From Clostridium sp. CAG:302 (GTDB lineage: Bacteria > Bacillota_I > Bacilli_A > RF39 > UBA660): 64,000 bases of DNA. The DNA lies in contig FR887372.1 in NCBI GenBank assembly GCA_000431795.1, positions 3,087 to 67,086 of the forward strand, given 5' to 3'. Made by a program: the position numbers and the translations under genes. Below the pieces are notes generated by a model that was given only the letters and a program-made list of their open reading frames with translations, was not told the origin of the DNA and searched no databases. Positions 3,760 to 53,054 of this stretch are shown one piece after another; positions within the stretch are counted from its first letter, which is position 1; each line of letters starts with the position of its first letter.

Positions 3760-3962
3760 AGAAAAAAGATGATACCATAAAAGGACGAATTAATATCCGC
3801 GGTACCACCTTTCTTTATAACATAAGTTATACTCTTAAATCTTTAACCTGATTAACGGTATAAAACTAAAGGGTGAATTCATACTAAATAATTAACTCTT
3901 CTTTCACCCTCTAAGAGCTCGCTAATAATTATTTTTATAGTATTACTACTTCCTCATCACTG
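3760..3962 (-). promoter_or_regulatory. T-box riboswitch leader (presumed Phe-responsive) with terminator
   Basis: Minus strand contains GAAAGGUGGUACCGCGG (top 3796-3812), matching the conserved T-box sequence AGGGUGGNACCGCG. Upstream is a Stem-I-like AGAGGGUGAA...UUCACCCU helix. Downstream is a hairpin plus UCUUUUUUCUUUUUU run. It lies upstream of the operon ending in pheS-pheT. Confidence 0.7.
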
Positions 3963-3967
3963 TCTTA

Positions 3968-4510
3968 TTATATAGTCATTAAATCTTTTTCTTTCTCTTT
4001 TAATTTTTCATCTACAATTTTATTATATTCATTAATTAAATCTTGTACTCTTTCATTACCTCTTTTTTCTTCATCCTCAGGTAATTCTAAGTTTTCTAAT
4101 GCTTTATTAGCATCTTGTCTAATATTTCTAAGAGCTATTTTTGCTTCTTCACCTAACCCTTTAACTTGTTTTACTAATTCTTTTCTTCTATCTTCAGTAA
4201 GTGGTGGTATTACTATAAATACTACTTCTCCATTGTTATTAGGAGTTACTCCTAAATTAGCTTCAAAGATAGCCTTTTCTATTGCTCCAAGACATGATCT
4301 ATCAAATGGTTTAATAGATAATTGCCTAGCCTCAGGTATAGATATATTTGCTAAACTTTTAAGTGGTGTTGGTACTCCATAATATTCTACCATAATACCA
4401 TCTAACATATTAGGATTAGCTCTACCTGCTCTAACATTAGTAAACTTGTTTTCTAAAGATTCAATTGTTAACATCATCTTTTCTTCTGTACTATTTAATA
4501 TTTCTTCCAT
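3968..4510 (-). CDS. frr: Ribosome recycling factor
   Basis: The 180-aa product carries the typical RRF sequence (MLDGIMVEYYGVPTPL...IPPLTEDRRKELVK). Confidence 0.9.
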   Translation of the reverse strand: MEEILNSTEEKMMLTIESLENKFTNVRAGRANPNMLDGIMVEYYGVPTPLKSLANISIPEARQLSIKPFDRSCLGAIEKAIFEANLGVTPNNNGEVVFIVIPPLTEDRRKELVKQVKGLGEEAKIALRNIRQDANKALENLELPEDEEKRGNERVQDLINEYNKIVDEKLKEKEKDLMTI

Positions 4511-10559: not shown

Positions 10560-10633
10560 TGGTGCCAAATGTAAGAATCGAACTTACCTCTAGGCATTAC
10601 GAGGGCCTTGTTCTACCACTAAACTAATTTGGC
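10560..10633 (-). tRNA. tRNA-Thr (anticodon CGU)
   Basis: The reverse complement folds as a cloverleaf: acceptor GCCAAAU/AUUUGGC, D-arm GUUUAGUGGUAGAAC, anticodon arm AGGCC-CUCGUAA-UGCCU (U33, anticodon CGU, A37), T-arm GUAAG-UUCGAUU-CUUAC, then an encoded ACCA. Confidence 0.75.
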
Positions 10634-24441: not shown

Positions 24442-24464
24442 AATTTTTAACCTCCTCTTATATA

Positions 24465-24600
24465 TGATTATTATCTTGTTACAATTTTGATTTTGTTTTT
24501 TTATAATAATCTAATGAGCATATACACCCAATGTAGTATCCGCCGAAAACTCGATAACTACATACCTCGTTAACTATTTCTAGTCTGGCGCTAATTTATA
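24465..24600 (-). ncRNA. glmS ribozyme (GlcN6P-responsive self-cleaving leader)
   Basis: Minus strand reads AGCGCCAGACUAGAAAUAGUUAACGAGGUAUGUAGUUAUCGAGUUUUCGGCGGAUACUACAUUGGG, matching the glmS ribozyme core (AGCGCCAGAACU...GACGAGGAUGG.GGUUAUCGAAUUUUCGGCGGAUGCC). It is followed by RBS AAGAGGAGG and the glmS ATG. Confidence 0.85.
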
Positions 24601-24691
24601 TTTTCTTCTCCCTTCTATAATATAAACTTTATTACATTATATCAGAATATTAAAAACGTGTAAACATCTGTAGTTACAATTAACTATTGGT

Positions 24692-49807: not shown

Positions 49808-50251
49808 TTAACATCCTGAACCAGTAGCTGTATTTTTAGTAGTGTCGCTAGCGTTATAAAATTGGCTACCATCAGCAGCAGTAAGTGTTACGCAAATCTT
49901 AGAACCATTAACCTTTACAGTACCACTTAGTCCTGTTGGATTAGTAATACCTGCAGCTTTTAATACAGCAGCATCTAAATTCTTTGCAGTAGTAGTTAAT
50001 CCACCTTCACCAACAAATGTAGTATATTCATCAGCAGGTCCACCAGCTACTCCAGCACCCAATGTAGCAAGTTCATATTGTTTAGTAAACCATTCAGTAA
50101 CTGTACCCGCAGCATTATTTAATTGACTAGTTTTAGCACTATTCATTGAACTAATAACTGATGGTATAGTAACTACGATAATAATAGCAAGTACTACGAT
50201 AACTGCTAATAACTCTATTAAAGTAAATCCTTTCCTATTTAATTTTTTCAT
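49808..50251 (-). CDS. Type IV pilin / pseudopilin (prepilin N-terminal methylation domain)
   Basis: MKKLNRKGFTLIELLAVIVVLAII: a class III signal peptide with the G/FTLIE cleavage motif. There is a C-terminal Cys pair. Confidence 0.7.
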   Translation of the reverse strand: MKKLNRKGFTLIELLAVIVVLAIIIVVTIPSVISSMNSAKTSQLNNAAGTVTEWFTKQYELATLGAGVAGGPADEYTTFVGEGGLTTTAKNLDAAVLKAAGITNPTGLSGTVKVNGSKICVTLTAADGSQFYNASDTTKNTATGSGC

Positions 50252-50308
50252 TATAAATCATTCTCCCTTCATCTATCTTACAAAATAATCTTATCACAAA
50301 ATAAAATC

Positions 50309-51037
50309 TTAGTCAATTATTTTAAGATAAATATTTACATATTTATCACTATACTTTTTGCTTTTCAATAATTCTAAATTATTATATTTATCTTTTAATT
50401 TATCAAAACTATACTCTAATAATAAGATTCCATTATCTAAAAGTAAATCATACTTAGTAACTAGTTCTATTACTTCTTCCATTACTTCCATTTTATAAGG
50501 AGCATCTACTAGTACAATATTAAACTTAATATTATTATTTTTAAAATATAATAAACTATCTCTATAATCTTTACTAACTATAATACTCTTACTATTAATA
50601 CCAAGATTATTAATATTCTTATTTAAATATCTCAATATATCTTTATTATTATCTACAAAATAACATCTACTAGCACCCATAGATAAAGCTTCTATACCAA
50701 GACTACCAGTACCACAAAATAAATCTAATATGATAGAATCATCAATATAATTTTGAATACTAGTAAACATAGATTCCTTTACTCTATTCATCGTGGGTCT
50801 AGTACCTATTATATTATAAGCCAAATAATTCTTTTCCTTATATTCAGAATATTTATATATTTTTTCTTTTAAAGATATTTTTTCATAATCATCTTTACTA
50901 GTATTATATTTATTAATTAATTCTAATAATTCACTATTATTTATAACTATTTCTTTATAATAATCTAATTTTCTAATTAAATTGCTATTTTCAAAAGAAT
51001 CTATTAACTTCTTTGTTTTATCTATAATATTATTCAT
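50309..51037 (-). CDS. rsmD: YlbF-like::RsmD fusion ORF (duplicate copy 1; 16S rRNA m2G966 methyltransferase domain)
   Basis: N-terminus MNNIIDKTKKLIDSFENS... is a paralog of 52321-52617. The C-terminus (LDLFCGTGSLGIEALSMGA...VLVDAPY) is about 95% identical to 51767-52333. A deletion of about 90 nt relative to copy 2 fuses the frames. Confidence 0.6.
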   Translation of the reverse strand: MNNIIDKTKKLIDSFENSNLIRKLDYYKEIVINNSELLELINKYNTSKDDYEKISLKEKIYKYSEYKEKNYLAYNIIGTRPTMNRVKESMFTSIQNYIDDSIILDLFCGTGSLGIEALSMGASRCYFVDNNKDILRYLNKNINNLGINSKSIIVSKDYRDSLLYFKNNNIKFNIVLVDAPYKMEVMEEVIELVTKYDLLLDNGILLLEYSFDKLKDKYNNLELLKSKKYSDKYVNIYLKIID

Positions 51038-51250
51038 TATCTATATTTAAAATCCTTTTCAAGTTCTCTTTTTATATCTCTTTCTTTAATAAATTCTTTT
51101 TTATCATAATTCTTTTTACCTTTACATACTCCTATTTCTACTTTACATCTTCCTTTTACAAAATAGAATCTAAGTGATATTAGTGTATATCCTTCTATTT
51201 CTAATTTGTTTTTTAGTTTTAATATTTCTTTTTTATGAAGTAAATATATT
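51038..51250 (-). pseudogene. Truncated smpB 3' fragment (duplicate remnant)
   Basis: The reverse complement encodes ...EFIKERDIKRELEKDFKY, matching the C-terminus of smpB at 52617-53054. Nucleotide similarity to 52618-52830 ends near 51250. Confidence 0.65.
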
Positions 51251-51305
51251 TTATCATTTTGATGTTAGAACAGATATCATTTAGACAAAGTTTTTTACAC
51301 TCTCC

Positions 51306-51336
51306 TCTATTTAAAAAAATGAACTATTTTTTAGTT
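51306..51336. terminator. Bidirectional terminator hairpin
   Basis: AAATGAACTA-ttttt-TAGTTCATTT, flanked by A-run and T-run. Confidence 0.6.
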
Positions 51337-51339
51337 CAT

Positions 51340-51684
51340 TTATCTTTTCATTGGTTTTGATTCTTCTACATTTATATTTGATTGTATTTCAAATGATTGT
51401 ATTAAAGCATTAAAATATTGTTCTTTAGAATAACCTTTCGGACATTCGACTTTGCCTGATATGATATCTTCATAAATTTTTCTTTTAAATTTTTCTTTTT
51501 CTTCAGGGATACTCATGTATTGCATTTTCATTTTATATAATTCTTCTAATCTAATTAATATTTTTTCTTCTTCGGAATTTAGCTCTTTATAAGATGGGAT
51601 ATCTTTTGTAATCATTGGAATAACTTGATCAAAAGGATTTTTTTCTAATTTTTTTTGTACTTCATCATATGATTTTTTATTCAT
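51340..51684 (-). CDS. Hypothetical protein (114 aa) located between the duplicated segments
   Basis: ORF with no recognisable motif. Confidence 0.45.
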   Translation of the reverse strand: MNKKSYDEVQKKLEKNPFDQVIPMITKDIPSYKELNSEEEKILIRLEELYKMKMQYMSIPEEKEKFKRKIYEDIISGKVECPKGYSKEQYFNALIQSFEIQSNINVEESKPMKR

Positions 51685-51766
51685 ATTTTCCCTCCTTTAT
51701 TGAATTATACTATATTTTTATTAATTTGACAATTACTATAACTATTCAAAAGTTGCACTTGACTTT

Positions 51767-52333
51767 TTAATTAATAATTATTTTAAGATAAATATTTACA
51801 TATTTATCACCATACTTTTTACTTTTAATTAATTCTAAATTATTATATTTATCTTTTAACTTATCAAAACTATACTCTAATAATAAAATTCCTTTATCTA
51901 AAAGTAAATCATACTTAGTAACTAGTTCTATTACTTCTTCCATTACTTCCATTTTATAAGGAGCATCTACTAGTACAATATTAAACTTAATATTATTATT
52001 TTTAAAATATAATAAACTATCTCTATAATCTTTACTAATTATCGTACTCTTACTATTAATATCAAGATTATTAATATTCTTATTTAAATATCTTAATATA
52101 TCTTTATTATTATCTACAAAATAACATCTACTGGCACCCATAGATAAAGCTTCTATACCAAGACTACCAGTACCACAAAATAAATCTAATATGATAGAAT
52201 CATCAATATAATTTTGAATACTAGCAAACATAGATTCCTTTACTCTACTCATCGTAGGCCTAGTAGTTTCTACATTATATCCAAGCAATTCTCTTCCTTT
52301 TAAATAACCACTTATTACTCTCATATATGACAA
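51767..52333 (-). CDS. rsmD: 16S rRNA (guanine966-N2)-methyltransferase RsmD
   Basis: MRVISGYLKGREL...TRPTMSRVKESMF...LDLFCGTGSLGIEA...VLVDAPY. Confidence 0.85.
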   Translation of the reverse strand: MSYMRVISGYLKGRELLGYNVETTRPTMSRVKESMFASIQNYIDDSIILDLFCGTGSLGIEALSMGASRCYFVDNNKDILRYLNKNINNLDINSKSTIISKDYRDSLLYFKNNNIKFNIVLVDAPYKMEVMEEVIELVTKYDLLLDKGILLLEYSFDKLKDKYNNLELIKSKKYGDKYVNIYLKIIIN

Positions 52334-52617
52334 CCTCTTACATTTGTATATTCTTTAAATCTTTTATTAATACCCATAATATAATAAAATAGTTCATTAT
52401 AATACTTCATATATTCTCTATATTCATCATATTTATATATCTTTTCTTTTAAAGATAACTTCTCATAATTATCAGTACTATTATTATATCTTTTTATTAA
52501 ATCTAATAATTCTTTATTACCAATAACTATTCTTTTATAATAATCTAATTTACTAATTAATTCACTACTCTCAAAAGAATCTATTAACTTCTTAGTTTTA
52601 TCTATAACATTATCCAT
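52321..52617 (-). CDS. YlbF/YmcA-family (DUF964)-like small protein
   Basis: The 98-aa product (IDKTKKLIDSFESSELISKLDYYKRIV...) lies next to rsmD, as B. subtilis ylbF lies near ylbH(rsmD). Confidence 0.5.
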   Translation of the reverse strand: MDNVIDKTKKLIDSFESSELISKLDYYKRIVIGNKELLDLIKRYNNSTDNYEKLSLKEKIYKYDEYREYMKYYNELFYYIMGINKRFKEYTNVRGCHI

Positions 52618-53054
52618 TATCTATATTTAAAGTCCTTTTCTAATTCTCTTTGAATATCTCTTTCTTTAATAGATTCTTTTTTATCATAATTCTTTTTACC
52701 CTTACATACTCCTATTTCTACCTTACATCTACCTTTTACAAAGTAAAATCTAAGAGGTATTAAAGTATAACCCTCTATTTCTAGTTTATTTTTTAACTTT
52801 AATATTTCTCTTTTATGAAGTAATAACTTTCTAGTTCTATCTTCTTCATGATTAAATCTATTACCTTCTTCATAAATAGAAATATGTGTATTAAGTAAAT
52901 ATATTTCATCATTTCTAATAATAGCATAACTATCTTTAATATTAACCTTACCTTGTCTTACAGACTTAATCTCAGTACCAGTAAGTACTATACCCGCTTC
53001 ATAAGTATCCTCAATTACATAGTCATATCTTGCTTTTCTATTTAATATCTCCAT
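52617..53054 (-). CDS. smpB: SsrA-binding protein
   Basis: The 145-aa product reads NRKARYDYVIEDTYEAGIVLTGTEIKS... Confidence 0.9.
   Translation of the reverse strand: MEILNRKARYDYVIEDTYEAGIVLTGTEIKSVRQGKVNIKDSYAIIRNDEIYLLNTHISIYEEGNRFNHEEDRTRKLLLHKREILKLKNKLEIEGYTLIPLRFYFVKGRCKVEIGVCKGKKNYDKKESIKERDIQRELEKDFKYR

Follow-up and report, generated by a model that had tools for sequence, protein, structure and literature searches.

How did a gut bacterium come to carry, next to an smpB–ylbF-like–rsmD operon, a second and incomplete copy of the same genes? The locus that raises this question lies in a stretch of 64,000 nucleotides (nt) of Clostridium sp. CAG:302 (contig FR887372.1), referred to here as the window; all positions below are window coordinates. 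The host is an uncultured human-gut Bacilli bacterium with a guanine-plus-cytosine (GC) content of 26%, the value also found for the window, in which nearly all genes are on the − strand. In order of transcription, the locus contains the gene P329, smpB, a YlbF-like gene, rsmD, a segment with an open reading frame (ORF) of 114 amino acids (aa), designated ORF114, a 3′ fragment of smpB, an ORF of 242 aa, a pilin-like gene, and nfo; the duplicated elements and ORF114 are all on the − strand. The original prediction, made from the sequence alone, described a recent duplication caught in the process of divergence. Our analysis points to a different history, in which the locus carries a strain-variable 1.46-kilobase (kb) insertion beside the native operon, probably consisting of an ORF114 cassette and a truncated operon copy with a 5′ half from a diverged relative; this foreign part is about as distant as another species.

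Local alignment placed the truncated copy (copy 1) at 50315–51259, where it repeats the native sequence at 51776–52914 (copy 2) in the same orientation. The rsmD block is ungapped over 490 nt and 96.5% identical at an offset of 1461, with an upstream arm at 51776–52265 and a downstream arm at 50315–50804 (both on the − strand); the downstream arm is the one that retains the ancestral end of rsmD and its original junction with the pilin gene. The block covering ylbF and the 3′ part of smpB (50834–51243 against 52414–52823) is ungapped over 410 nt and 86.8% identical at an offset of 1580, and a third, short match of 26 nt (51234–51259 against 52889–52914) has an offset of 1655. The description of copy 1 as near-identical to copy 2 thus holds for the rsmD half and not for the ylbF/smpB half, which is 13% diverged. 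The two main blocks are separated by a net deletion of 119 nt in copy 1 (junction at about 50825–50833), which takes out the last 30 YlbF-like codons and approximately the first 12 rsmD codons; because 119 nt is 2 mod 3 and both the ylbF stop and the rsmD start were removed, the two frames are fused, as had been proposed for a deletion of about 90 nt. Microhomology at the ends of this deletion could not be defined, as the undeleted donor sequence was not at hand. A second deletion in copy 1, of 75 nt and in frame, lies inside the smpB fragment between TTACTT microhomologies. This fragment, previously placed at 51038–51250, extends over 51037–51259 (− strand) and retains the last 68 smpB codons and 7 further codons as 75 open codons; no in-frame ATG, GTG, or TTG was found in 51037–51259, so that it does not encode a full-length SmpB (PF01668) with a start, and it is predicted to be dead. 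Apart from these corrections, the duplication, the frame-restoring deletion with its 242-aa fusion, the smpB fragment, and the intervening 114-aa ORF were all found about where the original prediction had placed them.

The differences between the two copies do not look like differences accrued in place. Nei–Gojobori estimates of synonymous (dS) and nonsynonymous (dN) divergence and their ratio (omega), copy 1 against copy 2, were dS = 0.70, dN = 0.031, and omega = 0.044 for the 3′ part of smpB; dS = 0.37, dN = 0.144, and omega = 0.39 for the ylbF part (orthologue range 0.2–0.66); and dS = 0.09 and omega = 0.27 for the rsmD part. The remnant differs from smpB by 17 synonymous and 5 nonsynonymous changes, while about 4.5 nonsynonymous changes per synonymous change are expected for a dead smpB fragment evolving neutrally (binomial p = 2.9e-9 against neutrality); this is the pattern of an orthologue from another species, as native smpB and its orthologue in such a species (L017) differ by dS = 0.72 with omega = 0.034. 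(L-numbers denote compared loci or contigs, with L011–L024 representing related species, and four-digit P-numbers denote protein variants.) The smpB divergence between the copies thus built up under purifying selection. Among 19 carriers, the core of the insert presents only about 1.2% variable sites, and polymorphisms in the remnant since insertion are 4 nonsynonymous to 1 synonymous, which is the neutral expectation and differs from the ratio among fixed differences (Fisher p = 0.03); the remnant now evolves neutrally. Because a between-species dS with low omega is found in an insert that is itself nearly invariant, the 5′ half of copy 1 is best read as a xenologous allele, one that was probably part of a working smpB–ylbF–rsmD operon in a diverged lineage until shortly before the insert formed.

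This pattern leaves little room for a recent in situ tandem duplication of smpB 3′–ylbF–rsmD followed by pseudogene decay or relaxed selection. The same orientation of the copies, head to tail, the 96.5% identity of their rsmD parts, and the polymorphism of the insert, which is hence young, would all fit such an event. However, the 5:17 ratio of nonsynonymous to synonymous changes largely refutes it, and a dS equal to a between-species distance would have had to arise in a segment in which carriers vary by only about 1%. The copies are also not each other's closest relatives: smpB and ylbF of copy 2 are 96–100% identical to those of four species representatives (L011–L014) and only 85–89% identical to copy 1, which is itself 84–90% identical to all of these. 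Furthermore, 504 nt of unrelated sequence lie at the junction in place of the direct head-to-tail join of a simple duplication. We consider an in situ origin very unlikely.

Comparison with other assemblies showed that the insertion is real and that it varies among strains. In the assembly collection, 44 blocks list the exact 242-aa fusion protein, which one public source assigns to Clostridium sp. CAG:302, and the same gene order was found with it in 24 of 24 contigs read and in 10 of 10 loci shown, which come from different samples, studies, and assemblers (the contigs of these 10 loci being 70–209 kb long); fusion variants at 93–99% identity, including a group of 237 aa, present the same architecture. 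The 237-aa sublineage (L072–L075, P0090) has an in-frame 15-nt deletion in the RsmD part, equivalent to about 50590–50610 of the window, and P0090 was seen on at least 24 contigs of up to 612 kb. All species-representative relatives (L011–L024) are single-copy, presenting a P329-like gene, smpB, the ylbF-like gene, rsmD, the pilin gene, and nfo without ORF114; SmpB of L011–L014 is 99–100% identical at the aa level to the native SmpB of the window. At least nine contigs of the same species (L083–L086, L093–L096, and L127) carry an empty site with the order smpB–ylbF–rsmD–pilin; P329, smpB, and nfo of these contigs are 98.6–100% identical at the nt level to those of the window, and neither ORF114 nor the remnant nor the fusion is present. 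Other contigs of the species (L081, L082, and L089) have filled sites, and a metagenome scan found the insert missing from most same-species contigs. As filled and empty sites occur within one species, the 1.46-kb insertion is a within-species presence/absence polymorphism. The expectation that relatives would be single-copy was thus borne out by close relatives and even by strains of the same species.

The caveat attached to the original prediction was that the second copy might be an assembly artefact. Such an artefact could arise through expansion of a repeat or through a chimera of co-occurring strains. Four low-coverage contigs (L077, L078, L079, and L092) are indeed demonstrably chimeric at the locus. 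The same layout was found, however, in dozens of independent metagenome assemblies, with identical junctions and gene order on contigs as long as 612 kb that stem from different studies and assemblers, and collapse or expansion could not have made copies that differ by 13% over 410 nt or the unique junction sequences; the probability of an artefact is therefore practically negligible. The four chimeric contigs (1.7–2.2× coverage) switch among copy 1, copy 2, a third lineage, or unrelated high-GC DNA within or beside ORF114 and the repeats, and the variant proteins P0129, P0132, and P0124 from low-coverage contigs are unreliable. L079 (P0132) was considered as an unfused copy-1 precursor, or as evidence for a circular or tandem unit of 1580 nt, and was rejected as a three-part mosaic (copy-1 type, the 'G' type of L092, and copy-2 type) at 1.9× and a probable assembly chimera. 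Likewise, P0129 (a copy-1 N-terminal part with a copy-2 C-terminal part), L077 (ORF114 joined to high-GC SASP DNA), L078, and the 3′ end of L092 were set aside as chimeric or uninformative.

The junctions indicate where the new DNA entered. In all single-copy genomes, rsmD has the ending ...ATAATTGACTAA (KIID*) and the pilin gene comes next; the same is true of copy 1, while rsmD of copy 2 has the ending ...ATTATTAATTAA (KIIIN*) and runs into the ORF114 cassette (junction 51775/51776). Because copy 1 shares the rsmD end of single-copy genomes, it holds the ancestral right junction, and the novel one falls in the last codons of copy 2. Within the retained rsmD part, bases specific to copy 1 extend for about 70–100 nt; beyond these, rsmD haplotypes are mosaic and common to copy 1, copy 2, and single-copy alleles. 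Between 50740 and 50780, copy 1 of the window and of its closest relatives presents copy-2-type bases, and seven other carriers present the foreign type, a distribution indicating a gene-conversion tract. The foreign stretch would consequently comprise the smpB 3′ fragment, YlbF-like residues 1–68, and the first approximately 70–100 nt of the retained rsmD part; the 3′ rsmD half of copy 1 appears to belong to the local recombining allele pool, and the rsmD halves were probably homogenised by recombination or gene conversion. Two rsmD 3′ haplotypes, alpha and beta, were tried as a test of a Campbell model, in which the 3′ end of copy 2 would be donor-derived, and proved uninformative, as both segregate among single-copy strains. 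One further locus (L098, 126–674) has same-species flanks (98.9% nt identity for the pilin gene and 98.2% for nfo) and an rsmD 5′ part only 78.7% identical to that of the window, which suggests that a diverged rsmD allele was imported here independently.

Recent movement of the insert is best seen in one carrier, L076, with upstream genes different from those of the window, PBP, smpB, and P329 only 92.9%, 95.4%, and 66% identical to those of the window, respectively, and a native block nearly identical to that of L011, a species representative with a single copy. Its ORF114 cassette, remnant, and fusion N-terminal part are nevertheless 99.8–100% identical to those of the window; because the insert core is this similar while the flanks differ by 5–7%, the insert has recently moved between lineages by homologous recombination. 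The same comparison bears on a third history, in which an ancient tandem duplication in the ancestor of the species cluster left two copies that were both long functional, with repeated losses and a recent truncation of copy 1. Such a duplication would also account for an omega far under 1 in the remnant; a copy flanked by direct repeats is readily lost without a trace, and concerted evolution is seen in rsmD. It would nonetheless require many independent losses (in L011–L014, L017, and at least nine same-species strains), and a core that is 99.8–100% identical across flanks diverged by 5–7% is impossible for an old neutral segment; moreover, ORF114 is without homologues elsewhere. An ancient duplication is accordingly highly improbable.

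With an acquired allele as the preferred explanation, the events at the locus may be outlined as follows. Diverged homologous DNA (ORF114–smpB′–ylbF′–rsmD′) would have integrated next to, and not in place of, the resident operon, through a single homologous crossover within rsmD combined with an illegitimate join in its last codons; the same outcome would follow if a circularised fragment had integrated in the Campbell manner, or if a tandem duplication had formed in the donor and one of its units had been imported. Microhomology-type deletions would afterwards have removed the 5′ part of smpB, 75 nt, and the 119 nt whose loss fused ylbF′ to rsmD′. The rsmD direct repeats (approximately 0.45–0.49 kb) would be substrates for homologous recombination, by which the insert could spread to relatives, be lost, or undergo gene conversion, and recombination between the 490-nt arms could in particular delete the insert.

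Several observations weigh against this account, or at least against parts of it. No native single-copy smpB or ylbF of the copy-1 type was found in a donor search covering the fusion N-terminal part, GTDB species representatives, metagenome contigs, and ORF114, and ORF114 beside an intact smpB was not found in the databases searched. Because the donor was not found, the integration route remains a model, and Campbell-type integration, unequal exchange, or an in situ duplication with allelic replacement of the copy-1 5′ half could each be the one that was followed. The insert also persists despite direct repeats that delete easily, which hints at selection for some component. Finally, two properties of the fusion, which matches PF03602 at E = 1.3e-40, would fit a retained function: it scores 135.9 bits against TIGR00095, with an equivalog cutoff of 117.5, and its ORF is intact in approximately 90 sequence variants, one of which has an in-frame 15-nt deletion.

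ORF114 is the sole component of the insert with a full set of expression signals. Its cassette is the unique sequence of 504 nt at the duplication junction (51263–51766, − strand) and contains a near-consensus promoter identified by a promoter scan (TTGTCA-17-TATAAT, 51732–51704), a strong ribosome-binding site (AAAGGAGGG), ORF114 itself (51340–51684), and a terminator with a hairpin and a U-run (approximately 51345–51310, −9.1 kcal/mol, z = −3.2); the terminator had already been attributed to this 114-aa ORF, to which the promoter and the ribosome-binding site are now added. As its GC content (22.9%) and its GC content at third codon positions (13%) resemble those of host genes, its source would be a similar AT-rich organism. 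No homologues outside the cassette were found among 5.8e9 clustered or 1.84e9 representative proteins, and searches of Pfam (E ≤ 10), NCBIfam, PHROGs, PADLOC, and phage and plasmid sequences (tblastn) gave no match, suggesting that ORF114 is a true orphan. In one carrier (L006, 5354–5707; window position 51342), the ORF114 stop is changed from TAA to CAA, which lengthens the product to 117 aa. Variation among the 19 carriers comprises two synonymous changes, one nonsynonymous change, and one stop change, too few to judge selection.

The insert does not resemble an autonomous mobile element (insertion sequence, transposon, integron cassette, or integrative element): ORF114 falls into no family of Pfam, NCBIfam, PHROGs, or PADLOC, there is no inverted repeat bracketing the insert, and the repeat that flanks it is a 490-nt gene segment and not a target-site duplication. 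It might still be a selected cassette mobilised by recombination, with ORF114 and/or the fusion as payload and the rsmD segment as a built-in homology arm, an idea that we regard as unlikely. If true, the cassette could excise as a circle and re-enter rsmD of related species by a single crossover, without a recombinase gene; this would account for the near-identity across flanks diverged by 5–7% and for the persistence despite unstable direct repeats.

The resident operon, for which the original prediction had listed an intact smpB, a 98-aa YlbF-like gene, and rsmD, was confirmed and is intact. Its first gene, smpB (52617–53054, − strand; 145 aa), matches Pfam SmpB over its full length (E = 3.5e-60) and follows a promoter-like site found by the promoter scan (TTGACT-17-TATAAT, 53105–53077). 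The 98-aa gene (52321–52617, − strand) overlaps the smpB stop with its start as TAATG, and its own stop overlaps the rsmD start as ATGA. Copy 2 of rsmD (51767–52324, − strand; 185 aa), native in its 5′ part, has its ATG at 52324 and its stop at 51767, and presents 145.6 bits against TIGR00095 and E = 2.4e-47 against PF03602; a 188-aa version with a TTG start is an effect of the first-start rule of the ORF lister. The 98-aa protein is more difficult to classify by profile, as its match to Com_YlbF (PF06133; E = 0.0055, 17.6 bits) lies below the curated gathering cutoff of 23.9, as does that of the fusion (20.4 bits); 24 of 25 members of the 98-aa family, however, match PF06133 at E ≤ 0.1 (best 1.3e-5). 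An AlphaFold2 model of the 98-aa protein has five helices and a predicted local distance difference test score (pLDDT) of 90, and the top nine Foldseek matches in PDB were SP1372, RicA/RicF, YheA, and YmcA (2IAZ, 6PRK, 2OEQ, 2OEE, 6PRH, and 2PIH), that is, YmcA/YheA/RicF-type helical bundles, with template modelling scores of 0.5–0.73, probabilities of up to 1.0, and E-values of at least 0.19. The model thus suggests that the protein is a small member of, or a neighbour to, the YlbF/YmcA/YheA fold. The most conserved columns of the 98-aa family are residues 66–96, which include helix 5 and a nearly invariant Cys96.

The fusion ORF (50309–51037, − strand) joins YlbF-like residues 1–68 (50834–51037) to RsmD residues approximately 13–185, with the junction peptide …KYSEYKEKNYLAYNIIG…. 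It is thus without YlbF-like residues 69–98, which hold most of the invariant columns, Cys96, and the bulk of a long helix (64–92), and retains helices 1–4; on the RsmD side, the first approximately 12 residues (MRVISGYLKGRE) are replaced by 68 foreign N-terminal residues. The complete N-terminal segment of RsmD (MRVISGxxKGR...), present in copy 2, is missing from the fusion, where the matches to TIGR00095 and Pfam begin at profile positions 17 of 194 and 7 of 182, respectively. The motifs for binding S-adenosylmethionine (SAM), DLFCGTG and VDAPY, are kept in both rsmD copies; in RsmD, these motifs have been defined as DxFxGxG and as DPPF-type, (D/N)PP(F/Y) (PMC1874633; PMC13232135). The AlphaFold2 model of the fusion is confident for the methyltransferase domain and has a pLDDT of 33–73 in the N-terminal part, for which the alignment was shallow, so that the low score is weak evidence. 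No promoter-like site (at least 10 of 12 matches) was found between the ORF114 terminator and the fusion start, the nearest Shine–Dalgarno-like sequence (AAGGA) lies 15 nt from the ATG, and the native TAATG coupling to smpB termination is dead at the fusion, as the upstream frame is without a start codon.

These properties have to be set against the possibility that the fusion is a selected, neofunctionalised RsmD-type methyltransferase whose new N-terminal helical module provides a partner, a target, or regulation, and that the insert is kept for it. The intact ORF and the one in-frame indel, the TIGR00095 score above the cutoff, the conservation of DLFCGTG and DAPY, and the persistence and spread of the insert despite unstable repeats could be read in this way, and throughout the order the ylbF-like gene and rsmD have been kept side by side and translationally coupled, suggesting a functional link. 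However, the helical module is cut in its most conserved part and modelled at low confidence, the conserved N-terminus of RsmD is missing, and the ORF has neither a good promoter nor a good ribosome-binding site and is no longer translationally coupled; given the youth of the insert, an intact ORF does not prove selection, and most same-species contigs in the metagenome scan do without the insert. RsmD is, in addition, thought to need a small size for entry into the 30S cleft (PMC1874633). A neofunctionalised fusion is therefore unlikely, and the suggestion of a YlbF-domain-tethered methyltransferase is weak, as residues 1–68 alone, without the long C-terminal helix and Cys96, are present. Most likely, the fusion would represent an RsmD paralogue that is expressed poorly and is decaying or, at best, marginal; its intact motifs and its intact ORF in the approximately 90 variants leave a small chance of a selected function.

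Both proteins may be compared with the families to which they relate. Like the 16S rRNA m2G966 methyltransferase RsmD (YhhF/YlbH), both rsmD copies score above the equivalog cutoff and retain the motifs expected of such an enzyme; unlike the canonical enzyme, which is a minimal single-domain protein (PMC1874633), the fusion has 68 added N-terminal residues. In B. subtilis, strains that have lost RsmD show no obvious phenotype (PMC13232135). With Com_YlbF proteins (RicF/YlbF, RicA/YmcA, and YheA; PF06133), the 98-aa protein would share the helical fold and a weak profile similarity, and its conserved cysteine near the C-terminus may recall the cluster-ligating C-terminal cysteines of RicA and RicF, as the Cys-bearing C-terminal tails of Ric proteins are needed for complex formation and iron–sulfur ligation (PMC6751060). 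It is, however, much shorter than RicF and falls below the Pfam cutoff, and the fusion keeps helices 1–4 only. In B. subtilis, ylbF and ylbH (rsmD) are near neighbours, as their gene names indicate. The fusion of overlapping genes (ATGA) by deletion, here of 119 nt, is nothing unusual.

The preferred reading, in which the 5′ half of copy 1 was acquired, has parallels in two known processes. According to Treangen and Rocha, writing in PLoS Genet in 2011, paralogues of prokaryotes reportedly arise by horizontal transfer rather than by duplication within the genome. The second partial operon copy is like such xenologous duplicates in being a diverged allele acquired from a relative, and unlike them in lying in tandem to the resident copy, sharing a homogenised arm with it, being truncated and fused, and being still polymorphic in the species. 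Homology-facilitated illegitimate recombination, or Campbell-type integration, in natural transformation is a concept used in PMC8116780 and PMC13344027. The likeness would lie in one end in homologous rsmD and the other an illegitimate join at the rsmD end, in non-homologous DNA (ORF114) carried in, and in narrow mosaic donor tracts; in contrast, the outcome here is additive (a duplication) and not a replacement, and the mechanism is deduced from sequence. The only competence-relevant content seen next door is a pilin-like gene.

That pilin-like gene (49808–50251, − strand) has an N-terminal methylation motif, marks the ancestral right flank of rsmD, and is also present in single-copy relatives; within the species it varies from 99% down to approximately 56–70% aa identity, and some strains have two pilin genes (L072, 6772–7772; L095, 4406–5090). 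On the other side of the operon, upstream of smpB, lies P329 (53131–54120, − strand), an orphan gene of 329 aa for which Pfam, NCBIfam, PHROGs, and PADLOC gave no family match. It is hypervariable, with 98–100% aa identity within the species and 46–73% in relatives whose SmpB is 99–100% identical; in L076 and L092, PGA_cap-type genes are found in place of P329. The variability of the pilin gene and P329 appears to mark the neighbourhood as a recombination or diversification hot spot. Elsewhere, the window presents ordinary Firmicute features, including a glmS ribozyme (24457–24603), a T-box leader (3778–3969), and tRNA-Thr(CGT) (10560–10633), all on the − strand. Across positions 1–64000, the + strand is skewed (C 16.8% against G 9.5%; T 40% against A 33%), and approximately 55 of the 64 long ORFs are on the − strand, including a ribosomal-protein cluster at about 27–39 kb; this skew and strand bias are consistent with a single replichore with strong gene-strand bias.

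Taken as a whole, the locus is a new example of known processes, namely xenologous paralogy, additive recombination, gene conversion, and fusion by deletion, and a new biological mechanism would be at issue only if selection were found to act on ORF114 or the fusion. For annotation, it calls for caution, as what is named a 242-aa 'RsmD family methyltransferase' is here a truncated fusion, and chimeras are frequent among low-coverage contigs of the locus. More generally, it provides a clean natural example of a xenologous copy, brought into a bacterial genome by recombination, that could pass for a recent tandem duplicate in the course of diverging; the two readings are told apart by the comparison of synonymous and nonsynonymous changes in a supposedly dead fragment and by empty sites in the same species. 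It also flags the smpB–rsmD–pilin neighbourhood as a probable recombination hot spot in a prevalent uncultured lineage of human-gut Bacilli.

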